Below, piece after piece: positions 3,635-26,405 of a stretch of DNA of 28,398 nt. The stretch is from a virus (Duplodnaviria; Caudoviricetes), in the IMG/VR virus record IMGVR_UViG_3300027917_000148, positions 1 to 28,398 of that record; one strand, given 5' to 3'. Below the pieces are notes generated by a model. The model saw only the letters and a list, made by a program, of their open reading frames with translations, ran no database searches and had not been told where the DNA came from. The translations under genes were made by a program, and so were the position numbers. Within the stretch, counting starts at the first letter, position 1. Each line of letters opens with the position of its first letter.

Positions 3635-4029
3635 GCCAATTTACTACACCTTGCAGAGTGGAAGTAATTGGAAAAAATCTATTTAAAATAATAGAGCCGT
3701 TTGAATATCACGTAGGAACGTATCCATCGGAAGAAATAATATCAGTACCAGTAAATTTTATAACTGATTTTGCATCTGTACCAAGAATTTTTTGGCCCAT
3801 TATTTCTCCAATAGACGAACATGCTAAAGCGGCAGTAATACATGATTGGATGTATAAATACAACTATGCCAAAAAATCAAGATGTGAAGAGATATTTAAT
3901 GAAGCCATGAAAGTACTAGATGTTCCAGATTGGAAGAGAATCTGCATTTACTGGAGTGTCTATACTTTTGGATGGTACACATGGATACGATATAGGAGGA
4001 TGTATGATTACAAGAGAATATGTGTCTAA
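3631..4029 (+). CDS. DUF1353-family protein
   Basis: VPVNFITDFASVPR and AAVIHDWMY motifs are typical of this phage family. ATGA overlap with the peptidase gene. Confidence 0.85.
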   Translation: MSQFTTPCRVEVIGKNLFKIIEPFEYHVGTYPSEEIISVPVNFITDFASVPRIFWPIISPIDEHAKAAVIHDWMYKYNYAKKSRCEEIFNEAMKVLDVPDWKRICIYWSVYTFGWYTWIRYRRMYDYKRICV

Positions 4030-7380: not shown

Positions 7381-10300
7381 ATGCCAGTTTCACAAGCTAC
7401 AGCTACAGCAAGTACTACTACAACATCTGCAACATATGGATTGTTGTCTGGTATGACTCTGACTCCAGGTGCAGGAAACTACATCCTTTCATTTGATGCA
7501 TCTGCTCAATGTAGTGATGAATCCAGAGTATTCTTTCAAGTATTTGTTAATGGTGTGGCTGTAGGACATACCCAAAGAGTCTTCTTTATGGAAGGTTCTA
7601 TTGTCAATAGACAAACTAGTGTAAAGATTTATGCTTACCTTCCAAATGTTGGTGCTGGACAAGCAGTAGAAATTAGATGGTATAGGGATACCGCTGGAAC
7701 GGCTACTTGTTATGATAGAACATTAGTTTTACAAAAAGTTAATGCATCTGATATCAGTCAAGCAACCGCAACCGCTCTGACAAATACTACCAGCACTACA
7801 AACGTACAGATGAACAGCATGACTCTGACTCCAGGGGTTGCTGGTAATTACATAATTTACTTCTCCTCATCCATATACGGAACATCGGAAGCAGATAATT
7901 ATCTTTCTGTTTATATCAACGGAGTACAGGTTACTCATAGTATAAGAAGAAATTTTCAAGATGCTTCTACTCCTAATACTGAATATATTTTCGGTCTTGT
8001 CATTGGTGCATCCGTTGGGGCTAGTGATACAATAGAAATCCGCTGGAGAACTTCTTCTGGTGACACGGCATATGCACGTAGCAGAACTTTAATAGCTCAA
8101 AGAATAACTAGTTATAATCAAGTAACTGGCACATCCACGCTTCAAACTACTTCTGCTACCTATGGCTTAATGGGGTCAATGGCAATCACTCCTGCCGCTG
8201 GAAGCTACATTGCGTTCTTTACTACAAGTGTATATCTAAGTACATCAACCAATTCAGAGATACGGTATACCTTATATAGTGCAGGAGCGCAAATTGCTCA
8301 TACGGCACGTATATCTGAATATGATTCTTCATATGACCAGATAACTCCTCTTCCAGCCGCTACTCATGCGTATATAACAGGTCTTACTGGATCACAGCAA
8401 GTTGATGTTAGATGGAATAGGGAAACTGGTACTGCAAATGTGATTAACCGTACATTTGTTCTTGTTCCAGCGGAAGTAAGCTCTTCTTCAAGTTCTACTT
8501 CTTCGTCAAGTTCAAGCTTTAGTGGTTCAAGCTCATCTTCGTCAAGCTCCAGTTCTCTAAGCTCTTCGTCAAGTAGCTCATCTTCATCGTCCAGTTCGTC
8601 AAGCAGTTCCTCTTCGTCATCGTCAAGTTCCTCTTCGTCATCGTCAAGTTCCTCATCCTCAAGCTCTTCGTCAAGCTCTACAAGCTCTTCTTCAACTTCT
8701 TCTTCTTCTGCTTCAAAGGCTACGGTAACATGGGGTCACGATACAGGAGTAGAGGAAGATGTTGCCAGAGATTTTTCTGGAAACTGGGAACTATCTAACG
8801 TCACAGTAAGCGGTTCGGGTGATTCTGAAACATTAACCTTCTGGTGTCCTACAGCTACAGCTATTTCAGAGGAATGGCTTTTAGGAGCAATGTCTTCTGC
8901 TCAAATCGTTTTAGACAAATATGATGCCTTGGCAGAGGGGCCAGCAATCGGAGTAGAATATAAAACTTCTACAACAAAAATAGGATTAGGTAGTATAGGG
9001 TGGACTCCGTATAACGGAAATGAGTTTACTAGTTTAGGATGGGTGCAGATAAGAATTTTCAAAGGTCTTGACGTACATGCGGAAGCAGGAATACTGGGAA
9101 GTACTGCTACTGACTCTGTATCCGCTTCCATTTCAATACCTCCATCTGGTTACTATGCTGAACCTTGTGGATGTCCTTTAAATAGAGTAGTTGTGGCTGG
9201 TGTGTCATGGGAAGATGCATCCACAGGAAGTTATGTTGCTTCGTGTCAATTTAACGGCATAGACATGACTTTAATATCTGGTGCGGAAGCAGTAGCTCCT
9301 AATAGCAGAATAAGCAATATTCAGCTTTATGCAATTTATGAAAACCAGTTACCATCTGTAGGTGGAGAGTATACTATAACCGCTCAGATTTCTGGAGCTA
9401 ATGAACCAGATGTTCAACCATACTTAACTGCCGTAGTTCTACAGGATATTAAACAAAGAATACCAGAAGTAAGTAAAACGATAGAAATACAAAGAGCGGC
9501 TGGTTTACAAACATTTTCTCATTCTGTACCAGTAAGTGCTGGTGACTCATTTAGTCATATAATTCTACATCATTTGATCAATAGTGAAGGAATTGGAGAT
9601 TCCCCACCTAGTGGTGGTGTGTATTTATCTCATAGTAATAGTCAAATTGAAGTATTTAATGAAGCTAATGATAACAGTACAGTAGGATTAACTTATAAAA
9701 CAGTTCCATCTGGTGGTGGCACATATACATGGAGTCATACTTTAAGTAGTGGTGTAATAATTCAAAGACATATGATTTTCGCAAGTCTATGGGATAGGGA
9801 ACCATGCTTAAATCCCACTACTATAGATGACGTTACTCTGACAAGCTCATCTTCGTCAAGCTCAAGTGAATCATCTTCGTCAAGTTCTTCGTCAAGCTCC
9901 AGTTCTCTAAGCTCTTCAAGCTCTTCTCTTTCATCTTCATGTCCTCCTACTATTATAGAAGATATAGGTCTGCAATCCTCATCCTCAAGCTCCAGTTCAT
10001 CTAGTCAATCGTCTTCGTCAAGTTCGTCTTCGTCATCTAGTAGTTCGTCAAGTTCAAGCAGTTCGTCTTCGTCCAGTTCGTCCTCTTCAAGCTCAAGCTC
10101 CAGTTCCAGCGAATCTTCGTCCAGTTCGTCCTCAAGTTCTTCTTCTTCGTCCAGTTCCAGTTCGTCCAGTTCGTCCTCAAGTTCTTCTTCTTCGTCCAGT
10201 TCCAGTTCGTCCAGTTCGTCAAGTTCATCCTCATCGTCAAGCAGTTCAAGCTATAGCTCATCCTCATCGTCAAGTTCTTCTTCGTCCAGTTCCAGTTCGT

Positions 10301-13300
10301 CCAGTTCGTCCTCATCGTCAAGTAGCTCTTCTTCGTCATCTAGTAGTTCGTCTTCGTCTTCGTCAAGTTCAAGCGAGTCATCTTCAAGTGCTGTTCCGTT
10401 TGGTTGTCCTGTAGATGTTACAATGAACACATGTACAATAAGCGGAGGAGATCACATTTCTCTATGCAATTGTTTTGATGACGATGTGTTATGTATTAAT
10501 GAATGTACTGGTGCTCCAGGTTTTGATGCTGATTTTACTTTTGAAGGATTGAATCCTTCTTTTCAATATACAGTTACTATAAGATTTAGATATAATCCTG
10601 CCAATCCTGCTCATATTATAAAATTAAGAATATATAACTACAATACTCTTTCTTATGATAACGTAACGGCAGATTCTACAGATTTCCCACAAAATGCTAA
10701 CTACCAGACTAAGGTATTTAACTTACCTAGTACAATGACTAATTACGTTAGTGGTGGTGTGGCTGTACTTAAAACCATACATACGTCACCTGGAAATACA
10801 CTTCACAAATTTTGTATAGACTGTATGAATTTAGCTGTAGGGTCATCTTCGTCAAGTTCATCCTCATCGTCACTTAGCTCTTCGTCAAGTTCCAGTAGCT
10901 CTTCATCCTCAAGTAGTTCGTCCTCAAGCTCTAGCAGTTCGTCAAGTAGCTCAAGCAGTTCGTCCTCAAGTTCTAGTAGTTCGTCCTCATCGTCAAGTAG
11001 CTCCAGTAGCTCATCTTCATTTTCTAGTAGCTCATCCTCAAGTTCAAGTAGTTCGTCTTCGTCATCCTCAAGTTCAAGTAGCTCCAGTAGCTCATCCTCA
11101 AGTTCAAGTAGCTCCAGTAGCTCATCCTCATTTTCTAGTAGTTCGTCTTCGTCTTCATCGTCAAGTAGCTCATCCTCAAGTTCAAGTAGCTCATCCTCAT
11201 CCTCAAGTTCTTCTTCATTTTCTAGCAGTTCGTCCAGTTCGTCAAGTAGCTCATCGTCAAGTTCAAGTAGCTCATCGTCAAGTTCTAGTAGTTCATCCTC
11301 AAGCTCAAGCTCATCCAGTTCCAGCGAATCTTCGTCAAGTAGCTCAAGTAGCTCATCGTCAAGTTCTAGTAGTTCGTCAAGCTCAAGCTCCAGCGAATCT
11401 TCATCCAGTTCCAGCGAATCATCGTCAAGCAGTTCAAGTAGCTCATCGTCAAGTTCTAGTAGTTCGTCAAGTTCAAGCTCCAGCGAATCTTCGTCAAGTA
11501 GCTCAAGTAGCTCATCGTCAAGTTCAAGTAGTTCGTCAAGTTCAAGCTCCAGCGAATCTTCGTCAAGTAGCTCTTCATCGTCAAGTAGCTCATCGTCAAG
11601 TTCCAGTAGCTCATCGTCAAGTTCCAGTAGTTCGTCTTCGTCATCGGAAAGTTCAAGTAGCTCTTCATCGTCAAGTAGCTCTTCCTCAAGTTCTAGTAGT
11701 TCGTCCTCAAGTTCAAGTAGCTCATCGTCAAGTTCCAGTAGTTCGTCTTCGTCATCGTCAAGTTCCAGTAGTTCGTCTTCGTCATCGGAAAGTTCAAGTA
11801 GCTCTTCATCGTCAAGCAGTTCGTCCTCAAGTTCTAGTAGTTCGTCTTCGTCAAGCTCCAGCTTTAGTAGTTCGTCAAGTTCAAGTAGCTCATCTGAAAG
11901 TTCAAGTAGCTCAAGTAGTTCGTCTTCGTCATCCTCAAGCTCAAGTAGTTCGTCTTCATCGTCAAGCAGTTCAAGTAGCTCATCGTCAAGTTCAAGTAGC
12001 TCAAGCAGTTCAAGTTCTTCCTCTGAAAGTTCAAGTAGTTCGTCTTCGTCATCGTCAAGTTCCAGTAGTTCGTCTTCGTCATCGTCAAGTTCAAGTAGCT
12101 CATCGTCAAGCTCTAGTAGTTCATCTTCGTCAAGCTCCAGCTTTAGTAGTTCGTCAAGCTCTTCATCAGAATCATCTTCCTCAAGTAGCTCCAGCGAATC
12201 AAGTAGCTCATCCTCAAGTTCAAGCAGTTCGTCCTCAAGTTCTAGCAGTTCGTCTTCGTCAAGCTCCAGTAAATCAAGTTCAAGTAGCTCAAGTAGCTCA
12301 TCTGAAAGTTCATCTTCGTCAAGCAGTTCGTTCTCTTCGTCAAGTAGCTCAAGTAGCTCATCCAGTTCGTCAAGCAGTTCGTCCTCAAGCTCCAGCGAAT
12401 CAAGTAGTTCAAGCAGTTCGTCCTCAAGTTCTAGTAGTTCCTCCTCATCTTCTTTTAGCTCATCCTCATCCAGTTCATCAAGCAGTTCGTCCTCAAGTTC
12501 TAGTAGTTCGTCAAGCTCAAGCTCCAGTAAATCAAGTTCAAGTAGCTCCAGTAGCTCATCTGAAAGTTCATCTTCGTCAAGTAGCTCATCCAGTTCGTCA
12601 AGCAGTTCGTCCTCAAGTTCTAGTAGTTCGTCTTCGTCAAGCTCTTCAAGTAGCTCATCCTCAAGTTCAAGTAGCTCATCCTCAAGTTCAAGTAGTTCGT
12701 CTTCGTCAAGCTCCAGTTCTCTAAGCTCTTCAAGCTCTAGTAGTTCATCCAGCGAATCATCTTCGTCAAGCAGTTCGTCCTCAAGTTCTAGTAGTTCGTC
12801 TTCGTCAAGCAGTTCATCCTCATCCAGTTCTTCCTCATCTGAATCATCTTCAAGCTCAAGCGAATCAAGCTCAAGCTCCAGTATTAGTTCATCTTCAATT
12901 TCTTCTTCCTCATCATCAGTTAGCTCATCGTCAGTTAGCTCATCGTCATCTAGTAAATCTTCGTCAAGTGAATCTTCGTCAAGTTCGTCAAGTTCGTCTA
13001 GCGAATCAAGTTCTAGCAGTTCCAGTTCTGTTAGCTCAAGCAGTTCGTCACGGTCATCTTCGTCAAGCTCAAGTTCGTCAAGCTTTAGCAGTTCGTCAAG
13101 CTCAAGTTCGTCAAGCGTAAGCAGTTCTTCTTCTTCGTCCAGCGAATCAAGTTCAAGCAGTTCAAGTTCTTCCTCTGAAAGTTCATCCTCTTCATCAAGC
13201 TCCAGTTCGTCAAGCAGTTCTGAATCATCCTCTTCAAGCTCAAGTTCGTCAAGCAGTTCGTCCTCATCCAGTTCTTCCTCAAGTTCGTCAAGCAGTTCCA

Positions 13301-14064
13301 GCGTGAGCAGTTCCAGTAGTTCTGTATCTTCGTCAAGTTCCAGCGTGAGTTCTTCTTCAAGTAGTTCCTCATCTGTGAGTTCTTCTTCGTCAAGTGAAAG
13401 TTCATCTTCGTCTTCGTCCAGTTCGTCTTCGTCTTCGTCAAGCTCCAGTTCCGTAAGTTCCTCATCCAGTTCATCTTCGTCAAGTAGCTCATCGTCCTCA
13501 AGCTCAAGTTCTTCAAGTTCAAGTTCCTCAAGTAGTTCGGTTAGCTCATCTTCAAGCTCTGTATCATCTTCTTCTTCGTCATTTAGTTCATCCTCATTTA
13601 GCTTTAGTTCTTCAAGCTCCAGCTTGTCTTCAAGCTCTTCGTCTAAGTCATCGTCTTCCTCATCATTTAGAGAAGAAGGAGGAGGAGGATATCCTGTATA
13701 TCCTGTAGCACCAAGAAGACCAGAATTTATTTGGTTCGATATTTCTTCCTCTTCGTCAAGTAGCTCTTCGTCAATATCCAGTAGCTATAGCAGTAGTTCA
13801 TGGTCATCAACCTCAAGCTCTTCAAGTGTGAGCAGTTCTTCAAGCTCAAGTGCTATCAAAGTTACTGTACAGATACCAAAGAAATTTAATAAACAAATGA
13901 TAATAAAGGTAACGGAGCCTAAGAGGAAGAAACCAAAGAAAGAAATTAGAATCAATGTTACCTTGAAAGAAGAAGTAAAAGAAGATTTGATTAAAGCCAT
14001 ACCAGCAAAGGAGAAAACAAAACAAGCGATTGGAATAGATATAAAAACGATCAAATCTAGTTAA
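7381..14064 (+). CDS. Giant poly-serine modular protein, probably a virion appendage/fibre
   Basis: 2227 aa uninterrupted ORF. Three tandem ~120 aa N-terminal repeats, several globular domains separated by poly-Ser tracts, and a Lys-rich C-terminus. Confidence 0.8.
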   Translation: MPVSQATATASTTTTSATYGLLSGMTLTPGAGNYILSFDASAQCSDESRVFFQVFVNGVAVGHTQRVFFMEGSIVNRQTSVKIYAYLPNVGAGQAVEIRWYRDTAGTATCYDRTLVLQKVNASDISQATATALTNTTSTTNVQMNSMTLTPGVAGNYIIYFSSSIYGTSEADNYLSVYINGVQVTHSIRRNFQDASTPNTEYIFGLVIGASVGASDTIEIRWRTSSGDTAYARSRTLIAQRITSYNQVTGTSTLQTTSATYGLMGSMAITPAAGSYIAFFTTSVYLSTSTNSEIRYTLYSAGAQIAHTARISEYDSSYDQITPLPAATHAYITGLTGSQQVDVRWNRETGTANVINRTFVLVPAEVSSSSSSTSSSSSSFSGSSSSSSSSSSLSSSSSSSSSSSSSSSSSSSSSSSSSSSSSSSSSSSSSSSSTSSSSTSSSSASKATVTWGHDTGVEEDVARDFSGNWELSNVTVSGSGDSETLTFWCPTATAISEEWLLGAMSSAQIVLDKYDALAEGPAIGVEYKTSTTKIGLGSIGWTPYNGNEFTSLGWVQIRIFKGLDVHAEAGILGSTATDSVSASISIPPSGYYAEPCGCPLNRVVVAGVSWEDASTGSYVASCQFNGIDMTLISGAEAVAPNSRISNIQLYAIYENQLPSVGGEYTITAQISGANEPDVQPYLTAVVLQDIKQRIPEVSKTIEIQRAAGLQTFSHSVPVSAGDSFSHIILHHLINSEGIGDSPPSGGVYLSHSNSQIEVFNEANDNSTVGLTYKTVPSGGGTYTWSHTLSSGVIIQRHMIFASLWDREPCLNPTTIDDVTLTSSSSSSSSESSSSSSSSSSSSLSSSSSSLSSSCPPTIIEDIGLQSSSSSSSSSSQSSSSSSSSSSSSSSSSSSSSSSSSSSSSSSSSSSESSSSSSSSSSSSSSSSSSSSSSSSSSSSSSSSSSSSSSSSSSSSSSYSSSSSSSSSSSSSSSSSSSSSSSSSSSSSSSSSSSSSSSSESSSSAVPFGCPVDVTMNTCTISGGDHISLCNCFDDDVLCINECTGAPGFDADFTFEGLNPSFQYTVTIRFRYNPANPAHIIKLRIYNYNTLSYDNVTADSTDFPQNANYQTKVFNLPSTMTNYVSGGVAVLKTIHTSPGNTLHKFCIDCMNLAVGSSSSSSSSSSLSSSSSSSSSSSSSSSSSSSSSSSSSSSSSSSSSSSSSSSSSSSSSSSSFSSSSSSSSSSSSSSSSSSSSSSSSSSSSSSSSSSSSFSSSSSSSSSSSSSSSSSSSSSSSSSSSSFSSSSSSSSSSSSSSSSSSSSSSSSSSSSSSSSSSSESSSSSSSSSSSSSSSSSSSSSSESSSSSSESSSSSSSSSSSSSSSSSSSSSSESSSSSSSSSSSSSSSSSSSSSSESSSSSSSSSSSSSSSSSSSSSSSSSSSSSSESSSSSSSSSSSSSSSSSSSSSSSSSSSSSSSSSSSSSSSSSSSSSSESSSSSSSSSSSSSSSSSSSSSSSSFSSSSSSSSSSESSSSSSSSSSSSSSSSSSSSSSSSSSSSSSSSSSSSSSSSSSESSSSSSSSSSSSSSSSSSSSSSSSSSSSSSSSSSSSSSFSSSSSSSSESSSSSSSSESSSSSSSSSSSSSSSSSSSSSSSSKSSSSSSSSSSESSSSSSSSFSSSSSSSSSSSSSSSSSSSSSESSSSSSSSSSSSSSSSSSFSSSSSSSSSSSSSSSSSSSSSSSSKSSSSSSSSSSESSSSSSSSSSSSSSSSSSSSSSSSSSSSSSSSSSSSSSSSSSSSSSSSSSSSLSSSSSSSSSSESSSSSSSSSSSSSSSSSSSSSSSSSSSSESSSSSSESSSSSSISSSSISSSSSSVSSSSVSSSSSSKSSSSESSSSSSSSSSESSSSSSSSVSSSSSSRSSSSSSSSSSFSSSSSSSSSSVSSSSSSSSESSSSSSSSSSESSSSSSSSSSSSSSESSSSSSSSSSSSSSSSSSSSSSSSSSVSSSSSSVSSSSSSVSSSSSSSSSVSSSSSSESSSSSSSSSSSSSSSSSSVSSSSSSSSSSSSSSSSSSSSSSSSSSSSVSSSSSSVSSSSSSFSSSSFSFSSSSSSLSSSSSSKSSSSSSFREEGGGGYPVYPVAPRRPEFIWFDISSSSSSSSSSISSSYSSSSWSSTSSSSSVSSSSSSSAIKVTVQIPKKFNKQMIIKVTEPKRKKPKKEIRINVTLKEEVKEDLIKAIPAKEKTKQAIGIDIKTIKSS
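10843..13665 (+). repeat. Low-complexity poly-serine-coding tract (~941 codons)
   Basis: Mosaic of TCN and AGY codons with recurring blocks such as TCGTCAAGT and TCAAGTAGC. Shorter tracts lie at about 6904-7010, 8479-8715, 9844-9940, 9976-10389 and 13744-13851. Confidence 0.95.
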
Positions 14065-14069
14065 AATTT

Positions 14070-14077
14070 TATAAATA
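14070..14077 (+). promoter_or_regulatory. T4-type late promoter TATAAATA
   Basis: Exact consensus between the poly-Ser gene and 14113. Confidence 0.7.
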
Positions 14078-14112
14078 TTAATGAAAGCTTATACATTTTA
14101 GGAGAAGTAATT

Positions 14113-14724
14113 ATGAATATCAAAATAAATGAACCTAAAACATTAGAATTTAACGTAGATACAAAAGGATGTAAAGAAGAGGATCTTAAAGGATATTTAA
14201 GATTTGTCTTTGAAGATGTAGAGTATGGATTTCCTGCTACTTTTAAATCTGGCACTATTAGAGTAAAAGTTCCAGCTTTCCAAACTCTTTTAAGTAATCG
14301 TCTTACAGAATCTATTTCTAATCACAAAGAAGTTACTGTAAATGCTCGACTAGACATTGTGGCTAACAATGAAGCTTTCGTGACTCCTTGGGAAAATGAA
14401 ATAGACATTGAGGTTCCTGTAGACATTCAAGTTAAAGAAGAGAAGAAGTCTGTTATCACAGAGAAGAAAAAAATGAATGTCAACGATCCTAAGTTATTTG
14501 AAGCATTTGACGATGCCGTTAAAACCAGCAAGTTTAAAGATGCATTGGAAAAGGACATCAAACCAGAAGTGAAAGTGGATGAACCTAAAGAAGAAGACGT
14601 AGATGAGATGTGTGGAGCGGATCATAAGAAGAAGAAAAAGAAAGTTAAAGAAGATCCAGATCCAGTTCCAGTCAAATCTAGGTTAGCTCAATCACTAGCT
14701 GAAATTTACGTTAAGGAGAAATAA
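14113..14724 (+). CDS. Hypothetical late protein with a charged C-terminal tail
   Basis: 203 aa with AGGAG SD. Confidence 0.75.
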   Translation: MNIKINEPKTLEFNVDTKGCKEEDLKGYLRFVFEDVEYGFPATFKSGTIRVKVPAFQTLLSNRLTESISNHKEVTVNARLDIVANNEAFVTPWENEIDIEVPVDIQVKEEKKSVITEKKKMNVNDPKLFEAFDDAVKTSKFKDALEKDIKPEVKVDEPKEEDVDEMCGADHKKKKKKVKEDPDPVPVKSRLAQSLAEIYVKEK

Positions 14725-14726
14725 TT

Positions 14727-15038
14727 ATGCCAGTCAAACCAGAGAAAGGACAAAAGAGATGGCAGTATATGGATAAGTGTATGCATGAGATCACTCATAA
14801 ATCAAAAAAAGAAAGATCACATGAACAAAGACTAGCCATTTGTTTAGGACAATGGGCTGAATTCTCTAACGAAGATGCCATATTGAATAAATTTGATTTA
14901 CTTCTAATTGGAGAAGAGATGAAATGTCCAGAAGGACAAAAATACTGACCAGTTAAAGGTGAATGTGTACCAGTTGGTACAGGAAGAAAAATCAGACAAA
15001 GACAAAGACAAGGCAATGGAAAGGGAATGGGAGAATGA
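14727..15038 (+). CDS. Small Cys-motif protein with in-frame UGA at 14946-14948; candidate selenoprotein (103 aa, ...KCPEGQKY-U-PVKGECVPVGTG...)
   Basis: Reading through the TGA completes a CPxGQ-x8-CVP motif that is also present in 15474-15938. The extended frame ends in an ATGA overlap with the next start at 15035. A hairpin follows the UGA. Without recoding the gene ends at 14948. Confidence 0.65.
14946..14981 (+). promoter_or_regulatory. UGA plus candidate bacterial-type SECIS hairpin
   Basis: Stem TGTACC (14966-71) / GGTACA (14976-81) with loop AGTT. The loop starts 24 nt after the UGA and has G at loop position 2, followed by U. Confidence 0.55.
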
Positions 15039-15436
15039 CTCTAATTGATAAAATAGACAGATTACTAGTAGAACGCTATAGTGGGCCTACCGTTACTGTT
15101 ACATGGGAGTTATGTGATCCTAAAGACTGGGATGGAGACACATGTACAGAAGTAGACATTAATCTTGGATTCTATCACACACCAGAAGAAAAAGAAATGG
15201 GATATATAAGAGTTCCAGAAACCTTTGAATTAGAAACAGTAGAGTTCGCTGAAAATATTACATACATGGGAAAGAAATATCGCTATGGACAAGCATTTCC
15301 AAAGCAATTAAGAAAACATGTCATGCAGTTTAGAGATCCTGTAGGACGTGCTGGATTCAAAAAAGGAAACTGGGAGTCATTTGTTAATAGGCAATTGTAT
15401 GAAAAACTTGGTGTAGAACATAGATACATAGCGTAA
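15035..15436 (+). CDS. Hypothetical protein (MTLIDKIDRLLVE...), putative head-internal protein
   Basis: Start reassigned from 14963 to ATG 15035, where the shared IDKIDxLL N-terminal motif begins. Confidence 0.75.
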   Translation: MTLIDKIDRLLVERYSGPTVTVTWELCDPKDWDGDTCTEVDINLGFYHTPEEKEMGYIRVPETFELETVEFAENITYMGKKYRYGQAFPKQLRKHVMQFRDPVGRAGFKKGNWESFVNRQLYEKLGVEHRYIA

Positions 15437-15444
15437 ATAGTTTG

Positions 15445-15473
15445 TTTACATTTACTTCCGAGTGGGGTATAAT
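15445..15473 (+). promoter_or_regulatory. Sigma70/T4-early-like promoter (G)TTTACA-N17-TATAAT
   Basis: Near-consensus boxes with a 17 bp spacer. The -10 directly abuts ATG 15474, so the target gene is unclear. Confidence 0.45.
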
Positions 15474-15938
15474 ATGGACATCATTAATAAAATAGATAAA
15501 CTACTAGGAGATCAAACTTCTGGAGCCACCACTACAGGTAACGTAGCAACTAACCTAGCTAAAGGACATGTAGATGTTATAGGTGGTGTACGTAGAGGAG
15601 TGAGTAGTATAGGTTATCAATGTCCGAAAGGTCAAGTATGGGATAAGACTACAAGGAAATGTGTTCCTTCAAAGAATGAGTCAAGTGTTGTGGGAGGATC
15701 ATATATAGCTGGAAGTACAGTTAACATTGTGGGATCTGGACAAACCAGAGTTTGGGGAGACAGGCTCAGATGGATGATTGACCTTGATAGGAAAGAACCA
15801 GTAGAAGAAGAAATACCAGATAAAGCAGAACAAAATATTGAGATGAGGAAAGGATTAAAGTTTAACAACATATTAGGAGCCTACGTTCCGCAAGGAGATA
15901 CGGAGATTGAGCCAAGATATGTTGAAGGAGAAGTATGA
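15474..15938 (+). CDS. Hypothetical protein (MDIINKIDKLL...) with CPKGQVWDKTTRKCVP motif
   Basis: Shared N-terminal motif. The Cys motif is paralogous to the UGA-containing motif upstream. Confidence 0.75.
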   Translation: MDIINKIDKLLGDQTSGATTTGNVATNLAKGHVDVIGGVRRGVSSIGYQCPKGQVWDKTTRKCVPSKNESSVVGGSYIAGSTVNIVGSGQTRVWGDRLRWMIDLDRKEPVEEEIPDKAEQNIEMRKGLKFNNILGAYVPQGDTEIEPRYVEGEV

Positions 15939-16153
15939 TGAACTTAGTAGACAAATATTTGAAAGAAGACATGATTAGTGAAGCTAGTAAAATGTATAAA
16001 AGCTTTGCTGATAGAATAAAAAGAGCCAAATCTGCTAAAGACATAACTAAGGTTTTAGGAGATATCAAAAAAGCCGTTAATACTAAAGATATAGACCAGA
16101 AAGAAGCTATAAAATTAGCTGATATGGCAGATGATAGATTGGAGGAAGTATAA
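15935..16153 (+). CDS. Small helical protein (MMNLVDKYLKE...)
   Basis: 72 aa with ATGA overlap and GAAGGAG SD. Confidence 0.75.
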   Translation: MMNLVDKYLKEDMISEASKMYKSFADRIKRAKSAKDITKVLGDIKKAVNTKDIDQKEAIKLADMADDRLEEV

Positions 16154-16450
16154 ATGTCTGATATAGATATTCTAGACAAAATTGAAGTAGAACAGTTAAT
16201 CCAAGACACAAAAGAATTCATGGAAGATCCAGAGCTTGCAGAAGCCGCTGTTAAAACCGCTGGCTGGACAAAATCTTCTGTAGAAAAATTTGGGAAGACA
16301 ATCGGAAAAGAACCTGGGAAAAAAGGATTCTTTGATGCATGTGTTATGAAGATGAAGGGAAGGGTAAACGATCCAGAAGGATTTTGTGCAAGTCTTAAAG
16401 ACAAATACTACGGAAATACGGACTGGAGAGGAAAAGACAAAGAGAAGTGA
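16154..16450 (+). CDS. Small protein with a Cys pair (FFDACV...EGFCASLKD)
   Basis: 98 aa with GGAGG SD, directly abutting the previous stop. Confidence 0.75.
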   Translation: MSDIDILDKIEVEQLIQDTKEFMEDPELAEAAVKTAGWTKSSVEKFGKTIGKEPGKKGFFDACVMKMKGRVNDPEGFCASLKDKYYGNTDWRGKDKEK

Positions 16451-17181
16451 AGCTAAAGCAATTTCTTAAAGAAGGTCAATGACCGCTTCAAACCATGTAC
16501 GGTGAAATGCCTACAGGTGGTAGGTTTGGCCCTTATACAGAATATGAATTAGCCGCTCAAAACATGGCAGAAGCGGCACATTGCATACTTGGATCATTGG
16601 CTAAGTTAAATAGTAATACTCCTTTTTGGATGGAGAAAGGACACATTAAAGAAGAAATGGGTATTATAGAAAGAGCCATGAAAGAGTATACTAGAGATGT
16701 TTATCTTGGACGTGTCTTTAGACCTGAAAATGCTAAGAAAACAATAGAGTCTGTTAAGAAAGCCGCTCCTAGATTAGAAAAAGATGCAATGAGCGCAAGA
16801 CGTAGAGTAAGTAAAAATCTACCAAAGGAAATACAGGATCTAGCAAAATATGCATATGATTTTTTAGTTCTTTTAGCAAGAAAGCTTTTAGATAGTGTAG
16901 AGCAAATAGAAAAAGGAAATATGGTAAACGCTTATAGAAATACTATACTACAAGCTTCTGTTAAAAATCTAAGAAAAATGGTAGATAGGTTTTTGAAGTT
17001 ATCAGATGAAGGAACAATAGAAGATCCATATGTAAAACCACAACCCAAGCTAAAAGTTAAACGTGTTCCTAAAGGAACCATAGCAAAGATGACAAAGAAA
17101 CAAAAAGAAGAGCAAAAGAACAGAAGAAAAGAATTAGAAAAAATGGACATAATGGATCTGCTATTCAAAAAGGATATATGA
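16447..17181 (+). CDS. Protein with in-frame UGA at codon 12 (16480-16482); candidate selenoprotein (MKLKQFLKEGQ-U-PLQTMYGEMP..., 244 aa)
   Basis: A GTGA overlap start at 16447 gives MKLKQFLKE, in frame with the 228 aa ORF at 16495, which has no SD of its own. A hairpin follows the UGA. Confidence 0.6.
16480..16527 (+). promoter_or_regulatory. UGA plus candidate bacterial-type SECIS hairpin
   Basis: Stem GCCTAC (16509-14) / GTAGGT (16520-25) with loop AGGTG, extendable by two A-U pairs past a bulged U. The loop starts 33 nt after the UGA. Confidence 0.5.
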
Positions 17182-17654
17182 AGAAGAAGTTAAAAATAGA
17201 CGAAACAATTTGGTCTGCTTATAACTATCCAGATGACGGAAGAGGAATATCAACTGATGACGATAGACCACCAGGGAATATCCTCATAGGCACTAAGTTT
17301 AAGCCTACCGACTACTTCAACAAATTGACTACATTTGCTAGAAACTGGGATTACGATGATGGTGAATGGACATGGGATCATTTTGAAATGGCTGGAGGAA
17401 TGGAGGATTACGATAACTATTCTCAAACACTCCAAGCTATGAAATCATTGTTTCCAGAAGAAACATGGAAAAACATTTGGAAGCGAATGACTCAAGTAGG
17501 TGATAAAGAAACCACTAGAGATTTTGCGAAAGCTGGACAACCCCACAGAGATGCGAGTACTCAGTTAGGAAAAGACAAGGAGGATGTAGCTTTACCTCCA
17601 AAGGAGATTCAAGCAGAGGACTTGGTAAAGAGAATTGATAAACTCACCTTGTAA
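17178..17654 (+). CDS. Hypothetical acidic/aromatic protein ending in DLVKRIDKLTL
   Basis: 158 aa with ATGA overlap. Confidence 0.75.
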   Translation: MKKKLKIDETIWSAYNYPDDGRGISTDDDRPPGNILIGTKFKPTDYFNKLTTFARNWDYDDGEWTWDHFEMAGGMEDYDNYSQTLQAMKSLFPEETWKNIWKRMTQVGDKETTRDFAKAGQPHRDASTQLGKDKEDVALPPKEIQAEDLVKRIDKLTL

Positions 17655-17793
17655 TAGATGCAAGATGTATTGGGAAGATGTGAAATATTGCCCACATAAA
17701 AAAATATTTCTACCCAAAGAAAAATGTAAGGATTTTGAAGTGAAAGAAGAAGATCCAAATAAACATGTTATTAGGAGGTCACTATATGAATAA
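17635..17793 (+). CDS. Small four-Cys protein (MINSPCNRCKMYWEDVKYCPHKK...CKDFE..., 52 aa), possible Zn-binding
   Basis: Manual translation from TTG 17635. It fills the gap between its neighbours, has a CxxC...C...C pattern, and is not in the ORF track. Confidence 0.55.
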   Translation: MINSPCNRCKMYWEDVKYCPHKKIFLPKEKCKDFEVKEEDPNKHVIRRSLYE

Positions 17794-19117
17794 AAAACAA
17801 AGAATAGAAGAGGAATATTACAAAGATCCAGATTTTAATAGAAGAAATTTAGCCAAAGAACTAGATGTAGACGAAGCATATATAAGAAGCATAATTAGAC
17901 CATTAAAGAAAAACACAATTAGACAAGGACATAAACCTCCAGAGGAATTTAGGGAGTTCAATAGAACATCAGAAAACAGAGCAAAACTTGACCTTCAATC
18001 AATTACAATTACTACTTTAGAACAAGCCTTGGAAGTAGCAGAAGTAGATTTGACTCAATGGAAAGTAGACAGGTATCATATTGGTAGCTGGCAAGTAACT
18101 ATGAAACTCCGTAAAGAGACTGGGGAATATGATAAACAAGGAAGACCGATTTATGTAGATGAGCCTAAAACAGTAACCATGTATAAGATTCAAGTATGGC
18201 TAGTCAAACTCCATAACATGGAATGGGTAGAAGCCATTAGAAATCTTATTAAAGAAGTACCAAAGATGAGGACTCCGAAAGTAACACGTCCAGAAATTGA
18301 AGATCTTGGAAGATACCTTTTGGAAGTAGCTTTGATGGATGTTCATTTTGGTATGCTGGCATGGGGAAAAGAAACAATGCATGATTACGATATAGACATT
18401 GCTGAAAATCTTTTTCTATATGCAGTTGAGGACTTACTAAATAAATCGGCTGGATACAATCCGTCAAGAATTCTATTTCCATTTGGGAATGACTTCTTGC
18501 ATATTGATGATCCAACAAACTTAACTCCACAAAACCGCAATCCACTTGATACAGATTCACGTCTAATCAAAATCTACACCAGAGCCAAGAAAGCAGTAAT
18601 TAAAGCTATTGACTACTGTAGACAAGTAGCACCTGTAGATATTGTATGGATTCCAGGAAACCATGATCCGAATGTCTCATATTATCTATGTGACGTTATC
18701 TCTGAAATTTTTGCACATGATGAGTACGTAAACGTGGATGTCGGGCCTAAGTGGAGAAAGTTCTATCCTTGGGGAGAATCTTTAATTTGTTTTACTCATG
18801 GAGTAGAAGAACCTATCAGAGATCTTCCAAGTATTATAGCTACAGAGCAACCTAAACTTTGGGGAGATTCTAAATACAGAGAAATCCATATTGGACACAA
18901 GCATAAGAAACAAGAAATCAGATGGGTCAATGTGGACACTCATGCTGGAACAGTCGTTAGAATGATTCCCAGTATTGCTACAGAGGATTCATGGCACTAT
19001 AGAAAGGGATACATCAAAGGATATCATGCCGCTGAATCTTACATTTGGGATATGAGCTTTGGAATGATAGGTCAGTTCACTAGTTATATTGATTATGAGG
19101 AGATGGTGGATGATTAA
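17786..19117 (+). CDS. Calcineurin-like metallophosphoesterase with an N-terminal HTH-like segment
   Basis: Motifs MDVHFG, GNDFLH, PGNHD, FTHG and IGHKH. N-terminal RRNLAKELDVDEAYIRSI. AGGAGG SD before ATG 17786. Confidence 0.85.
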   Translation: MNKKQRIEEEYYKDPDFNRRNLAKELDVDEAYIRSIIRPLKKNTIRQGHKPPEEFREFNRTSENRAKLDLQSITITTLEQALEVAEVDLTQWKVDRYHIGSWQVTMKLRKETGEYDKQGRPIYVDEPKTVTMYKIQVWLVKLHNMEWVEAIRNLIKEVPKMRTPKVTRPEIEDLGRYLLEVALMDVHFGMLAWGKETMHDYDIDIAENLFLYAVEDLLNKSAGYNPSRILFPFGNDFLHIDDPTNLTPQNRNPLDTDSRLIKIYTRAKKAVIKAIDYCRQVAPVDIVWIPGNHDPNVSYYLCDVISEIFAHDEYVNVDVGPKWRKFYPWGESLICFTHGVEEPIRDLPSIIATEQPKLWGDSKYREIHIGHKHKKQEIRWVNVDTHAGTVVRMIPSIATEDSWHYRKGYIKGYHAAESYIWDMSFGMIGQFTSYIDYEEMVDD

Positions 19118-20580
19118 AGAGGTAACATTTTTTCTAAATCATAATTTTGCTCCATAGTGTTAAACGTAATTTGCTCAACATCGAAGCCTTCGTTTTCATA
19201 GAAGTACTCACGTTCTCTGGCATGTTTTGCTAGATATTTAACGTCATCTACTATATCGAAAACGAAGGCTCCTTTTTCTTTACTCTCATGTTGTCTCAAA
19301 GCACGTCCTATGCTCTGGATAACTCTTATCTTTGATTTAAACGGAGCAGTTAATACCAAGTATTTAAGATTGGGTATATTAATTCCTTGCTGGAAAATTC
19401 CATATGTAGCAATTAGAGCAATGTTCTTTTCGTGGATCATCTTCTGTCTCCAATCCTCTCTTAGATCAACGTCATCTTTACCAGATAAAAACACAACACT
19501 TCTTTTTGTGTAGTTCTCAAGATGGTATCTTAATAAATTTCCTTCCCTATGAAATCCAACTAGAAGTAAAACATTATCGTCTAAGTAATTCACAAGATCC
19601 TTTATTAATCCCAGTCTGAATCTATGCTCAAATGTTTCTCTTTTAACGTCATCGTAATACTCTGCTTCCAGTCCTAAGTGATATTCAACATTTAACATTT
19701 TCACATTACACTTTGCTATATATCCTTGTTCTCCTAAGAGTCCAGATGGATATTCTCTTAAAACTGGGCCAAGGAAAGCCTTTGTATTAAGCGTTTCCAG
19801 TTCATCGAAAGGCATTGTACCAGTAAATCCAAGTCTGTACCTTGCTTTGGATTTTGAGAATATCTTCTTTAGTTCATGGGCTTTTACTTGGTGACACTCA
19901 TCTCCAATTATAGCGTCATAGTCATCCAGTTTTTTCATATTGTTTTTCAAGGATTGCCATGTAGTAATTACAATTGTTTTAGCCCATTGAACAGGTTTGT
20001 TTTTTATCTTGTCATATATCCTGCCGATATACTTCTCCTTGATTCCATATTCCTGCATGTCTGTATAGAACTGCTCAACTAACTGCTTTGAGGGAACTAT
20101 AATCAAGGCTCTTCTAACTCTTGTGATTGGTCTATTATCAAGTAGTGTCTTTATTATATAGGAGATGACAAGTGATTTTCCAGAAGCGGTAGCACTCCTG
20201 ATAATTCCTTTGGTGTATCTTAAACAATATTCAATTGCTTCCTTCTGGTAGGGATGTGGGAATAGAGACAGATCATAGTTAATCTCTAACTCTTCTCCCT
20301 TGAATAAATTTTTTACTTCGTCATCTACTTCTAGCTGTACGTCTTTGTGTTTCTTGTGCTCTCTCAAATAGTCCAATAGCAGACCATATGGAAATGTACC
20401 AGCTTTAGTGATCAGGGATGTTTCACCATTCCAAACTCCAGCTTGATATGTCGGCATCCAATAGTAATCCTTTACCTTATGAGTAAAGGCTTTCTTCATT
20501 GCTTTCATATACTCTGGTGAATTGGTATGAATTTTTATTCGTATGTCTTTATATAATTCCAGTCTCGCTTTAGATGCCAT
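19114..20580 (-). CDS. uvsW: UvsW-like SF2 DNA helicase
   Basis: SATASGKS (Walker A), DECH, GFTGT and QSIGRALR. T4-like N-terminus, adjacent to uvsY. Confidence 0.9.
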   Translation of the reverse strand: MASKARLELYKDIRIKIHTNSPEYMKAMKKAFTHKVKDYYWMPTYQAGVWNGETSLITKAGTFPYGLLLDYLREHKKHKDVQLEVDDEVKNLFKGEELEINYDLSLFPHPYQKEAIEYCLRYTKGIIRSATASGKSLVISYIIKTLLDNRPITRVRRALIIVPSKQLVEQFYTDMQEYGIKEKYIGRIYDKIKNKPVQWAKTIVITTWQSLKNNMKKLDDYDAIIGDECHQVKAHELKKIFSKSKARYRLGFTGTMPFDELETLNTKAFLGPVLREYPSGLLGEQGYIAKCNVKMLNVEYHLGLEAEYYDDVKRETFEHRFRLGLIKDLVNYLDDNVLLLVGFHREGNLLRYHLENYTKRSVVFLSGKDDVDLREDWRQKMIHEKNIALIATYGIFQQGINIPNLKYLVLTAPFKSKIRVIQSIGRALRQHESKEKGAFVFDIVDDVKYLAKHAREREYFYENEGFDVEQITFNTMEQNYDLEKMLPL

Positions 20581-20983
20581 GTCTTTCTCTATCCGTATAT
20601 GTCTTCATTCTCCAGCCTTGCTGTTCAAAGGCTTTGTAGCACATTTCAAAAAATCTAACTCTTATTTTTTGTTTCTTCAATATCTTCTTCATTTGGATTA
20701 TTTTCTTATCGGCTGGTAGACAGTATTTCTCAATTTCTGGTTTGCTCCATTCTTCATCTTGGTTGAACCTGTAATGTTTATACTGATTCCCTGTTAAAGC
20801 TTCCATTTTTCTTTCAAGCTCCTCATATATGTCAAGCTCTTTGTAGTAAAGCTCTTTATATTTTATGACTTGAAAAGTATTATCCTGTAGCTTCTCTTGG
20901 ATATTAGTCTCATCGAACTTTACCATTTCTTCAATGGGATGTTCTTCTATCAGTCTTTCAAATATTTCTTTTTCACTAGGCAT
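20570..20983 (-). CDS. uvsY: UvsY-like recombination mediator
   Basis: ~137 aa helical protein with YKHYRF...EIEKY...D and GWRMK patterns. T4-like synteny with uvsW. An AGGAG SD favours ATG 20983. Confidence 0.7.
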   Translation of the reverse strand: MPSEKEIFERLIEEHPIEEMVKFDETNIQEKLQDNTFQVIKYKELYYKELDIYEELERKMEALTGNQYKHYRFNQDEEWSKPEIEKYCLPADKKIIQMKKILKKQKIRVRFFEMCYKAFEQQGWRMKTYTDRERHGI

Positions 20984-21020
20984 AGACACCACTCCTATTA
21001 TAAATATTTACATTATCAAC

Positions 21021-21049
21021 ATACTAACATAAGTAAAATAAAAAGTAAA
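21021..21049 (-). promoter_or_regulatory. Sigma70/T4-early-like promoter for uvsY-uvsW: (G)TTTACT-N17-TAGTAT with extended TG
   Basis: Read from the reverse complement; 17 bp spacer. Confidence 0.55.
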
Positions 21050-21067
21050 CTCACAAAATTTAATATG

Positions 21068-21095
21068 TTTACAATTGAGCCAATTCTGGTATAAT
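21068..21095 (+). promoter_or_regulatory. Sigma70/T4-early-like promoter (G)TTTACA-N16-TATAAT with extended -10 (TGG)
   Basis: The -10 ends 6 nt before ATG 21102. Confidence 0.65.
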
Positions 21096-21101
21096 ACCCA
21101 C

Positions 21102-22469
21102 ATGGAACGTGTAAATTCTGATTATCTAGAAAAAATTATTGTCAAAGGTATGACAAGTAATAAGGACTTCTTAGTTCTTGTGTCTTCTGTATTTGAAGCC
21201 AAGTATTTTGATGATCCTCACATTAGACATACCTTTGATTTCTGTAAGAACTATTTTGGTGAATACAATGAACTTCCCTCTAGAGACTCTATAATAAACT
21301 CTTCTGAGGAGGAAGTAGAAGGACTCAGAAACTTAATAGAAGAAGTAGAAACTTTGGAGTTTGATGTAGCGGAGGGATATCAGTTCTTATTGGAACAATC
21401 GAATGACTATTTAAAAGAGAAAGCCCTTAAAAGTGCAATCCTTGAATCTGTAGATGAAGTAGAAGATCCAGAAAGACGTAATAGAATACGTGACAGGATA
21501 GAAGATGCACTAGTCAAAGATCTAAAAATAAATTTGGGATTACATTATTTTAGACATCTACAAGACAGATTAAGAAGGATCTTTACTGCAAGCGAAAACA
21601 GAGTTCCCACCTTTTTCCCAATATTTGATGAGTTCATTAATAACGGCTTTCCTCCTTTTACTCTAAGTATTTTAACTGCAAAAATTCATGGTGGTAAGAG
21701 TAACACAATGGCTAATTTTGCCGCAAGACAAGCCATTAACGGCTTAAATCCAGTAGTAATTTCTCTGGAAATGGGTGAGGATGCTTTTGCTCAAAGGTTC
21801 GATGGTATCTATTCTTTGATGGATATAAACAGGATGTACCTTTCACGTCCTAACAAACAAAGATTGATAAGCAGACTAAATGAAATTGGAAGAAGAGAAG
21901 GAAGAGGAGAAGTATTCATCAAACAGTTTCCTACTGGAGAAGCTTCTGTAATAGATTTCAAGGTATTTTTGCGTGAATTGATAATGAGAGATATTACTCC
22001 GCATATACTTTATGTTGACTACATTAACTTAATGAAAACAGCTTACAAGGTTGAGAATAACATGTATTCAGTAGTCAAGAGAATAGCGGAAGAGCTTAGA
22101 GCATTGTCATTTGAATTTGAGATCCCTGTAGTATCTGTATCACAGCTAAATAGACAAGGAACATTTGTTAATTTTGAAGCCCTTGACTTTAACTACGTAG
22201 CAGAATCTCTAGGTGTTCCTGCTACCGCTGATTTCATGGCTATACTGGGAACAGACGAAGACCAGATGATTTATGAAAATGAAATTCTTTACAAGATAAC
22301 TAAAAATAGACTTGGAGGAAGAGTGGGGCAATTCGATAAATTTTATCTGGATGCTAAGAGTTTAAAAATGTATGATCGTAGTGAAATGGATGAATGGATT
22401 CAGGATGCTGAAATTTCAGGAGATGAAAGAAGATCAGTAGACCACGATAGTAGAGAAGGAAATGATTAA
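21102..22469 (+). CDS. Replicative DnaB-family helicase (T4 gp41-like)
   Basis: AKIHGGKS Walker A, ISLEM, YVDYINLM, SVSQLNR, AESLG and KNRLGG. The TTG start at 21075 overlaps the promoter, so ATG 21102 is preferred. Confidence 0.92.
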   Translation: MERVNSDYLEKIIVKGMTSNKDFLVLVSSVFEAKYFDDPHIRHTFDFCKNYFGEYNELPSRDSIINSSEEEVEGLRNLIEEVETLEFDVAEGYQFLLEQSNDYLKEKALKSAILESVDEVEDPERRNRIRDRIEDALVKDLKINLGLHYFRHLQDRLRRIFTASENRVPTFFPIFDEFINNGFPPFTLSILTAKIHGGKSNTMANFAARQAINGLNPVVISLEMGEDAFAQRFDGIYSLMDINRMYLSRPNKQRLISRLNEIGRREGRGEVFIKQFPTGEASVIDFKVFLRELIMRDITPHILYVDYINLMKTAYKVENNMYSVVKRIAEELRALSFEFEIPVVSVSQLNRQGTFVNFEALDFNYVAESLGVPATADFMAILGTDEDQMIYENEILYKITKNRLGGRVGQFDKFYLDAKSLKMYDRSEMDEWIQDAEISGDERRSVDHDSREGND

Positions 22470-22755
22470 TCAATTATTAGGGCTTTCTTTAGGAGCAATA
22501 ACTGGAGTTATTGGTAAATTTGTGGGAAATTTATCTGGAGAACATCAATTATATTCAGACTACCAAAGAAGAATATTGGATGAAATGGAGGACTATGAAC
22601 ATTCTTCTTCTATGTCTTGGTTTTCGTCTTCTGCTTCTTCAACTACTGATGACATGGAAAGTGAAGCTTTAGGAACTCCTTATTTTGCAAGTATTAAAAA
22701 GAGACTTGGGGAAGAAGAAGAGTTTTTCAAAAAGGAAGAATTCGATGTTGAGTAA
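22462..22755 (+). CDS. Hypothetical protein with C-terminal EEFFKKEEFDVE motif
   Basis: 97 aa, overlapping both neighbours. Confidence 0.65.
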   Translation: MINQLLGLSLGAITGVIGKFVGNLSGEHQLYSDYQRRILDEMEDYEHSSSMSWFSSSASSTTDDMESEALGTPYFASIKKRLGEEEEFFKKEEFDVE

Positions 22756-23380
22756 AAAGCAAATAAGACTTTTGCAATTACTAGATACTCAATTTGTCAA
22801 TTGCAAAAAATGTACGCTGTATCCTAACGGAATGGCAAAACCTCTATGGAATCCGTTCAATAGATTTGCGATTATAGGAGAAGCCCCTGGTTTCAATGAG
22901 GTAAGAGGAGGAGAACCATTTGTAGGAGAAGCAGGAAAGATATTAACTGATAATATACTAAAACTTGGATTTAAAAGGAGTGATTTTTTAATTATCAATT
23001 CTGTTAATTGCAGATGTGTTAAAGCTGGAACTAACGCTAATGGAAAACCTACCAGATCTCAGCTACATGCTTGCCAAGACTGGCTCAGAAAATATTTGAA
23101 AGTAGTGAATCCAGAGAAGATACTTTGTCTAGGAAACTTTGCTAAGTACTACTTTACAGAAAGTTGGGATGGAATAATGTCTCAAAGAGGAACATTCAGG
23201 CAGTATAAGCTTGACGAAACAAGTAGAGACTTTCCTGTTTTATTTACTATTCATCCTGCTTTCCTGATATACCAAGAAGAGAGGATTAAAGAGTTACAAG
23301 CAGATCTGGCACTATTCAAGGAGTTCAAAAATACAGTAGAAGAAAATTGGACTTTCAAAGAAGAGGAATTCGCTATATGA
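22745..23380 (+). CDS. Family-4 uracil-DNA glycosylase (Fe-S cluster type)
   Basis: CKKCTL, IIGEAPG..E...GEPFVGEAGK, NSVNCR, C and HPA motifs. AAGGA SD before ATG 22745. Confidence 0.9.
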   Translation: MLSKKQIRLLQLLDTQFVNCKKCTLYPNGMAKPLWNPFNRFAIIGEAPGFNEVRGGEPFVGEAGKILTDNILKLGFKRSDFLIINSVNCRCVKAGTNANGKPTRSQLHACQDWLRKYLKVVNPEKILCLGNFAKYYFTESWDGIMSQRGTFRQYKLDETSRDFPVLFTIHPAFLIYQEERIKELQADLALFKEFKNTVEENWTFKEEEFAI

Positions 23381-23625
23381 GCATAATAGATGATTATAGC
23401 AAGTTTGTATTTGCCAAGGGAAGACAGATGGGTAAAACTGAAATGACTAGAATGACTATTCCTCTTATACGAAAAGTGTTCCCTAAACTAATGGCAGAAG
23501 AACTGGTTGGTGTACAGCCAATGGAGGGGGTGAATTATGGAAAGATAATAGAAGCATTAAAAATAATAGACCAGACAAATAAATTTATAGAATTTTTTAA
23601 AGAAGAAGAATTTACCATAGAATAA
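23377..23625 (+). CDS. 82 aa protein with RQMGKT and a gp23-like IPLIRKVFPKLMAEELVGVQPM segment, ending in FFKEEEFTIE
   Basis: ATGA overlap with the UDG gene; motifs recognised by eye. Confidence 0.7.
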   Translation: MSIIDDYSKFVFAKGRQMGKTEMTRMTIPLIRKVFPKLMAEELVGVQPMEGVNYGKIIEALKIIDQTNKFIEFFKEEEFTIE

Positions 23626-23655
23626 GCCGATGGGATGAAGAAATCCATAACGCTT
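23624..23655 (+). promoter_or_regulatory. Hairpin immediately 5' of the DNA polymerase SD; possible translational operator
   Basis: AAGC..ATGG-GATGAAGAAAT-CCAT...GCTT, followed by GAGGAGG (23656-62) and ATG 23667. Confidence 0.45.
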
Positions 23656-23666
23656 GAGGAGGTATC

Positions 23667-26369: not shown

Positions 26370-26405
26370 TAGATTTCTAATAGATTTCTAATAGACGCTA
26401 ATAGA
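26363..26405 (+). repeat. Tandem 11-bp repeat TTTCTAATAGA x3 plus a partial fourth copy (CGCTAATAGA)
   Basis: Read directly; the first copy contains the polymerase stop codon. Confidence 0.9.

Follow-up and report, generated by a model that had tools for sequence, protein, structure and literature searches.

A candidate selenocysteine codon in a portable motif with its own SECIS-like hairpin in genes of T4-like phages

The read-through frame and its gene cluster

The window (the whole stretch of DNA analysed here, a 28.4-kb virus record of 37.5% GC) contains T4-like genes for a family B polymerase, a UvsW-like helicase, UvsY and DnaB, as identified by profile searches. A 34-kb relative is identical to the window and has a completeness rating of 19%, and a Gp23-type capsid gene is found in two of the five larger related records. 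Of the 17 sequencing runs listed, nine contain at least half of the window's sampled words, with seven runs flagged as a possible source; these nine are labelled marine sediment or seawater, and no RNA run was among those listed. Several other regions of the record were observed in passing. The Gp23 major capsid profile is matched over a short stretch of its N-terminal part (E 3.2e-7) by a small ORF at 23347–23625, with replication genes around it, and weakly by the ORF at 22462–22755. A papain-like peptidase and a DUF1353 gene lie between two ORFs of 335–345 aa (1725–2762 and ~3950–4927) that look alike and are without a library match. The 2227-aa ORF at 7381–14064 is composed of small domains separated by very long poly-serine tracts, and six related assemblies diverge from the window in loci that extend into it.

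Small genes on the + strand form a cluster that begins at 14113, behind a late-promoter-like site, and the gene at 14727 is its second member. Matches of the type TATAAATA, which we take to be the T4 late-promoter consensus, occur seven times in the window, against 1.83 expected, and none of 100 shuffles reached seven. The features of the locus are as follows.

14070–14077, + strand: T4-type late-promoter-like site, TATAAATA, ahead of the cluster starting at 14113
14727–15038, + strand: read-through ORF of 103 aa, with ATG at 14727 and terminal TGA at 15036–15038; TGA retained in the orthologues L022, L027, L032, L042, L126 and L171
14727–14870, + strand: N-terminal helical hairpin with conserved cysteines C18 and C39, from the alignment, matches to P0014, P0021 and P0023, and model helices
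14925–14972, + strand: 16-codon motif C67-P-x-G-x-x-Y-U74-x5-C80-V-P, a predicted β-hairpin of modest confidence
14946–14948, + strand: in-frame UGA, codon 74, likely selenocysteine codon; TGA or TGY in family rows
14966–14981, + strand: bacterial-type SECIS-like hairpin with a 6-bp stem (arms 14966–14971 and 14976–14981) and loop AGUU (14972–14975)
15621–15668, + strand: paralogous motif within the ORF at 15474–15938; Asp occupies the UGA position, and such a hairpin is absent

A preliminary description of this DNA had pointed to an in-frame TGA at 14946 with an open frame beyond it, and both are present: the frame runs from the ATG to the terminal TGA, and the read-through product would hold C67-x6-U74-x5-C80. 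The protein collection annotates the gene as a 73-aa product that ends at the UGA. A sequencing or assembly error at this codon was considered and rejected, as the ORF, TGA included, is the same in each of the six other IMG/VR assemblies of this phage, and contigs from two of four sequencing runs span the codon with unchanged letters (one of these two runs is possibly the source of the window). The terminal TGA overlaps the ATG of the next gene at 15035, the coupling that had been noted earlier; this ATGA overlap stands for the window but not as a conserved trait, since several orthologues extend 85–96 codons past the UGA. The N-terminal helical-hairpin region occurs in other phage proteins too. 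The read-through protein produced no match in Pfam, PHROGs or NCBIfam, none was found among GenBank phages, and Rfam gave none within 14000–17500. With the Cys homologue P0016 as query, the Atlas yielded only unnamed viral clusters scoring <0.9.

The UGA codon and the hairpin across the motif family

The family motif was defined over 16 codons as C-P-x-G-x-x-[YW]-(TGA/Cys)-x5-C-[VI]-P. A viral scan for the motif with TGA returned 37 loci, comprising 25 of the family (six from this phage and 19 from others) and 12 chance matches, and the scan with TGC, TGT or TGG returned 47, comprising 44 with TGY and three with TGG. The control scan with TAA or TAG returned six loci, none of them in a family gene. 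The metagenome scan, in which the third base of the site codon was left free and Pro was required next, gave at least 122 matches in at least 120 loci (an estimated ~121 stretches); those listed comprised 55 TGA, 61 TGY and six TGG, and the listed matches of <45% GC (n = 90) comprised 52 TGA, 38 TGY and no TGG. Among the viral and the listed metagenome matches, the distinct family rows in related low-GC contigs numbered 54 with TGA and 25 with Cys (TGY), and no TGG, TAA or TAG row survived the family filter. Duplicates, loci of >41% GC, short frames, sequences with no K or R in the spacer and the chance row L013 were dropped before the hairpin counts, as were 27 viral loci in which Met replaces Val/Ile. 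These 27, among L050–L092, represent an all-Cys variant ending in C-M-P, often followed by Gly/Asn-rich repeats. A further Cys form, C-P-x-G-x-x-[YW]-C-P-x4-C-[VI]-P, was observed behind a basic leader in small Chryseobacterium genes (L267, L271, L273, L274, L280, L283, L293, L294 and L301).

Homologues with Cys or a conserved TGA at this codon, together with a conserved downstream frame, had been named in advance as support for recoding. Full-length orthologues at ~58–65% identity retain the TGA and the downstream peptide, and other homologues carry TGY. TAA, TAG or TGG, which had been named as evidence against it, were found at this codon in none of the family DNA, and Trp appears at the site in three database family proteins (P0013, P0018 and P0032). 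Loci near-identical to two of these three carry TGA (L165 and L038), and from the protein entries and these loci we read the Trp residues as code-4 gene calls.

If the UGA were a true stop, the frame beyond it would be a decaying remnant and the hairpin would serve RNA stability or the translation of the next gene. Gene callers do end the protein there, as in most of the database homologues (P0004, P0005, P0009–P0012 and P0015), and the tail past the UGA in the window is just 29 codons long. Set against this, TAA and TAG never occupy the site in the family although TAA terminates 728 of the 1176 ORFs in these related records, the second half of the motif, x5-C-[VI]-P, is conserved past the UGA, and many family rows continue for >100 codons after the UGA behind a leader of just 11–45 codons. 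A true stop is consequently regarded as highly improbable.

The genetic code of this phage is otherwise normal, in agreement with the earlier statement that UGA is not globally reassigned. Recoded phages exist (PMC12386605), and a code in which UGA signifies Trp, Gly or Cys, either in all genes or in the late ones, was considered on that basis. It is contradicted by 21 window genes (5661 codons, 110 of them TGG) that are intact under the standard code with no in-frame TGA, by 1367 Trp sites of the relatives that align to Trp with none of the 48 stops within alignments being TGA opposite Trp, and by 33 of 112 orthologue pairs in which an aligned gene end is TGA in one member and TAA or TAG in the other. 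Global recoding was rejected on these grounds, and a reassigned code confined in any of these ways is extremely improbable; one apparent alignment of TGA opposite Trp proved to be an antisense shadow ORF and was discarded. Neither a tRNA-Sec over the cut-off nor selD was found in five partial phage records (28–79% complete), which fits reliance on the host. As a separate observation, ARAGORN at a relaxed threshold called CUA-anticodon (amber-reading) tRNAs in four of the five larger relatives, yet TAG terminates genes there; the calls are these.

G001, 66784–66860: CUA-anticodon tRNA
G002, 23421–23496: CUA-anticodon tRNA
G003, 22983–23077 and 43166–43239: CUA-anticodon tRNAs
G004, 14299–14376: CUA-anticodon tRNA

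The hairpin 3' of the UGA is present as it had been described, with a 6-bp stem, an AGUU loop and a spacing of 23 nt between UGA 14946 and the loop. Hairpins were scored with an in-house script, not bSECISearch, on four SECIS criteria (PMC13188914): (i) a loop of 3–9 nt on a stem of 4–16 bp, (ii) a G in the first two loop positions, (iii) a distance of 16–37 nt from the UGA and (iv) a folding energy of -7.5 kcal/mol or lower. The window hairpin satisfies all four, with -7.5 kcal/mol locally and -9.5 over 45–65 nt. Alone it is weak: z-scores against dinucleotide shuffles are -0.86 to -2.05, varying with the length folded, and comparison with synonymous recodings gives p = 0.23, since the peptide CVPVGT itself favours a hairpin. 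The evidence is comparative, and the hairpin is judged to lie beyond chance at the family level only.

Across the family, whose rows are interrelated such that p-values are inflated, criteria i–iii were satisfied in 53/54 TGA rows versus 5/25 Cys rows. After the ordinary gene ends of nine related records the same criteria were satisfied at ~22% (TAA 151/689, TAG 35/153 and TGA 51/247), and the hairpin rate of the Cys rows is the same as that of these gene ends. Addition of a local energy of -4 kcal/mol or lower left 50/54 TGA rows versus 2/25 Cys rows. Four TGA rows (L033, L049, L144 and L212) fold above -4 kcal/mol, and after clustering at 75% DNA identity hairpins folding at -4 kcal/mol or better were found in 17/18 TGA versus 1/14 Cys representatives. 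An energy of -7.5 kcal/mol was reached by 25/54 TGA rows locally and by 41/54 over 60 nt. Two Cys rows that retain a good hairpin, L142 and L147, are possibly recent reversions from UGA or its precursors. Overall, the hairpin is retained with TGA and mostly lost with Cys.

The same association is visible at single bases. The codon whose third base closes the stem of the 3-nt-loop form is GAG, where it encodes Glu, in 15/15 TGA versus 3/7 Cys rows, and GCG, where it encodes Ala, in 8/8 versus 1/4; the Pro codon CCG occurs in 23/54 TGA versus 2/25 Cys rows. Two matched pairs of TGA and Cys rows with the same peptide (L170 with L111, and L122 with L129) differ solely at the stem-closing base. In the largest carrier family, picked by protein similarity, the 26 TGA rows gave a three-pair consensus stem in which one pair is changed on both sides in four rows, and the 12 Cys rows gave no consensus hairpin. 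A tree of 36 of these 38 rows needs two to three switches between TGA and Cys. RNAalifold on 27 TGA rows of mixed carriers produced no consensus structure, because the stem sits in two registers, with 3-nt and 4-nt loops. Synonymous codon choices and compensatory pairs follow the TGA, and selection is visible at synonymous sites.

Collectively, the UGA/Cys alternation, the open frame, the hairpin linked to the UGA and the normal use of UGA as a stop support the candidate phage selenoprotein that had been proposed, and UGA 14946 is most likely read as selenocysteine by the SelB/tRNA-Sec machinery of the host. The G-loop hairpin 23 nt downstream of the UGA would likely recruit host SelB and tRNA-Sec, and insertion of Sec at codon 74 would yield a phage protein of 103 aa containing the motif C-x6-U-x5-C. 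The host would be a Sec-using bacterium, and a hairpin within the ORF fits a bacterial one, since archaeal SECIS elements are mostly located in the 3' UTR (PMC13188914). A genome scan for the host returned 36 loci, six with TGA, all of these at ≥55% GC and outside the family, and comparison of window positions 14000–28398 with 401 genomes from the phylum to which G006 belongs returned eight short matches, none in a repeat array.

Two other decoding routes bear on this evidence. The SECIS could be real and the inserted residue mainly Cys, delivered by SelC*/CysRS*/SelB* as in some Desulfobacterales; Cys insertion at Sec UGA codons is described in PMC9437257, and this route would account equally well for the UGA/Cys alternation and the hairpin, so that sequence cannot separate it from Sec. 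The same source presents the system as coexisting with ordinary SelC/SelB in one subgroup, as a posited low-selenium back-up, and many lineages would have little cause to keep UGA over TGY were Cys what is normally inserted. We therefore consider it unlikely. In the second route the UGA would be read independently of SelB, as a leaky UGA-C decoded by tRNA-Trp or by an opal-suppressor tRNA of the phage, with insertion of Trp or another residue. A C does follow most TGA rows (in the viral scan; the metagenome pattern forced it), the three database homologues show Trp, opal suppression with Trp is reported for crAss-like phages (PMC12386605), and the window record is a fragment that could hide a tRNA. 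TGG is nonetheless absent from the 90 listed low-GC metagenome matches, and the three viral TGG loci are all of ≥55% GC and outside the family; no UCA-anticodon tRNA was found in the window or in five partial relatives (108 tRNA calls; records 28–79% complete), and a G-loop hairpin at fixed spacing after TGA, but not TGY, would be left unexplained. Such read-through is very unlikely.

Carrier proteins, a second candidate gene and predicted structures

The preliminary description had presented the locus as a candidate selenoprotein gene; the actual unit is a short portable motif on many carrier proteins. With the motif masked, the 79 rows fell into 16 rough groups, 11 of which have TGA members, and by this comparison the motif, with its putative built-in SECIS, is carried by about ten different proteins. 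Positions near the start account for 37 rows, internal ones for 27 and those near the end for 15. The unit is best described as a cassette of 16–19 codons in which the codons for the peptide would also form the SECIS, and this double role would allow it to be attached at either end of unrelated proteins or in their middle. The TGA motif has moved within this single gene cluster: the window has it in the 14727 gene, L034 and L038 apparently have it in their orthologue of 14113, and L014 and L047 have it in the orthologue of the 15474 gene, which carries Asp at this position in the window and Cys in L054 and L096. Each of ten records chosen for carrying the TGA motif (nine distinct phages, all partial) has exactly one TGA copy, and several carry an extra Asp or Cys copy. 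The paralogous motif reported earlier two genes downstream of 14727 is indeed present, although with Asp and not Cys at the UGA position.

A second, unrelated candidate selenoprotein gene lies downstream in the same window.

16447–17181, + strand: candidate selenoprotein of 244 aa, a helical bundle, with GTG start and in-frame TGA at 16480–16482 (codon 12)
16509–16525, + strand: SECIS-like hairpin belonging to it, with a stem of 6 bp and loop AGGUG, 32 nt beyond UGA 16480

At the UGA site, 18 of the 35 homologues of this protein have Cys, 14 are called from a downstream start, one has Trp and two are without the site. In DNA, the 14 non-self loci comprise one with TGA (L308, 72% identity), nine with TGY, three without the site and one that the script left unmatched. 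Both TGA sequences can fold into the hairpin, L308/G008 carrying changes on both sides of two pairs, and it is weak in the Cys form that was tested; competing folds exist, and the distinct TGA sequences number only two. The occurrence of a UGA/Cys pattern in a second, unrelated gene supports the selenocysteine reading, as judged from these alignments. The protein was modelled as a helical bundle (pLDDT 90.6), and a fold search with it gave no significant match, the best being VIA Z 9.7 to ZnT-type helical bundles, under the level that the tool treats as meaningful for helical bundles. As an observation on the model, invariant E42, H45, C46, H66, E69 and E70 lie in the bundle and could form a metal site.

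The model of the 14727 protein, built from a 23-row alignment, is weak (mean pLDDT 63.6, pTM 0.41). It consists of helices at residues 11–25 and 32–47, a β-hairpin with strands at 71–74 and 79–82 that holds U74 and C80, and a disordered basic tail; a fold search with it gave no significant match. That a single position is occupied by Sec, Cys or Asp suggests a residue that binds metal or forms a turn; for the Asp of the paralogues, either of these roles appears to fit better than a catalytic one. The Asp paralogue (ORF 15474–15938) itself has a weak CBM_14 match (E 0.00038, 21 bits versus a curated cut-off of 22.1). The tripeptide [ILF]-x-E is found ≤10 residues before the motif in 27/74 rows, against a background of 13%, and this modest excess, with the late-promoter-like site upstream, suggests head-packaged proteins. 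A small β-hairpin whose Cys, Sec and Cys would coordinate a metal or be joined in a selenenyl-sulfide link, placed on late proteins that are perhaps packaged in the head, is offered as a tentative model. The broader picture is similarly speculative: a lineage of large T4-like phages might have evolved selenoproteins of its own, in which a self-contained cassette of 16–19 codons (a Cys-Sec-Cys metal or redox hairpin with SECIS) moves between unrelated late proteins, with one Sec copy per genome, Sec in the phage head, and particle assembly or early infection tied to the selenium pathway of the host.

Relation to known systems

The preliminary description knew of no characterised phage selenoprotein of this type, and literature searches over open papers found no bacteriophage selenoprotein. 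The words phage, virus and viral are absent from the main text of a 2026 review of the prokaryotic selenoproteome (PMC13188914), and in the available text of bioRxiv 10.1101/2022.07.06.499078 both mentions of 'phage' concern housekeeping context. Calls of tRNA-Sec in three huge phages are reported in PMC10747093, whose accessible portion suggests from these calls that some huge phages may encode selenoproteins and names none. Decoding of this kind is already known, and the literature searched contains no description of a phage that employs it in a portable cassette carrying a SECIS of its own. If Sec is inserted, the 21st amino acid is used by phages in their own protein families, and gene callers cut such proteins short or translate them wrongly. 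A UGA with SECIS would also mark Sec-using hosts for uncultured phages, and a short cassette with its own SECIS, with UGA and Cys variants one synonymous hairpin base apart, makes for an easy reporter test.

The internal head proteins of T4 have capsid targeting sequences and are cleaved by gp21 after L/I-X-E (PMC9026906). The genes studied here resemble them as small genes behind a late-promoter-like site, with the [ILF]-x-E excess and a Gp23-type capsid in two of five related records, and differ in that no sequence homology is shown and that the cleavage-like signal is absent from most rows. The Asp paralogue resembles the C-terminal Cys hairpin of CBM_14/peritrophin-A (PF01607), matching profile positions 28–49; unlike that domain, it scores below the curated cut-off and covers part of the domain only, and the UGA form gives no match. 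Opal-recoded phages (Zeta crAss-like, PMC12386605) likewise have in-frame UGA in their genes, but there UGA denotes Trp across genes, whereas here it is confined to two Cys sites, and five partial relatives yielded no UCA tRNA.

Poxvirus selenoproteins (MC066L of molluscum contagiosum and fowlpox GPX4) were given as the only proven viral ones in PMC6769590 (2019). The present genes share with them a virus-encoded UGA and, presumably, the use of host machinery. Unlike those captured eukaryotic glutathione peroxidases, they have a bacterial-type SECIS-like element within the ORF and belong to a virus-type protein family.

E. coli fdhF is the prototype of SelB/SECIS-dependent genes. Sec insertion in bacteria, as outlined in PMC5029168, involves an in-frame UGA, a hairpin directly downstream, SelA, SelB, SelD and tRNA-Sec. 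The phage genes resemble such bacterial genes in having an in-frame UGA opposite Cys, an in-ORF hairpin directly 3' of it, a G among the first two loop positions and a spacing within 16–37 nt, and they resemble Sec/Cys hydrogenases (PMC13582414) in a Val/Ile exchange tied to the loop G. They differ from the bacterial genes in being phage-encoded, in belonging to no known enzyme family and in presenting the UGA within a 16-codon portable motif on many carriers, where SelB would probably be the factor used.
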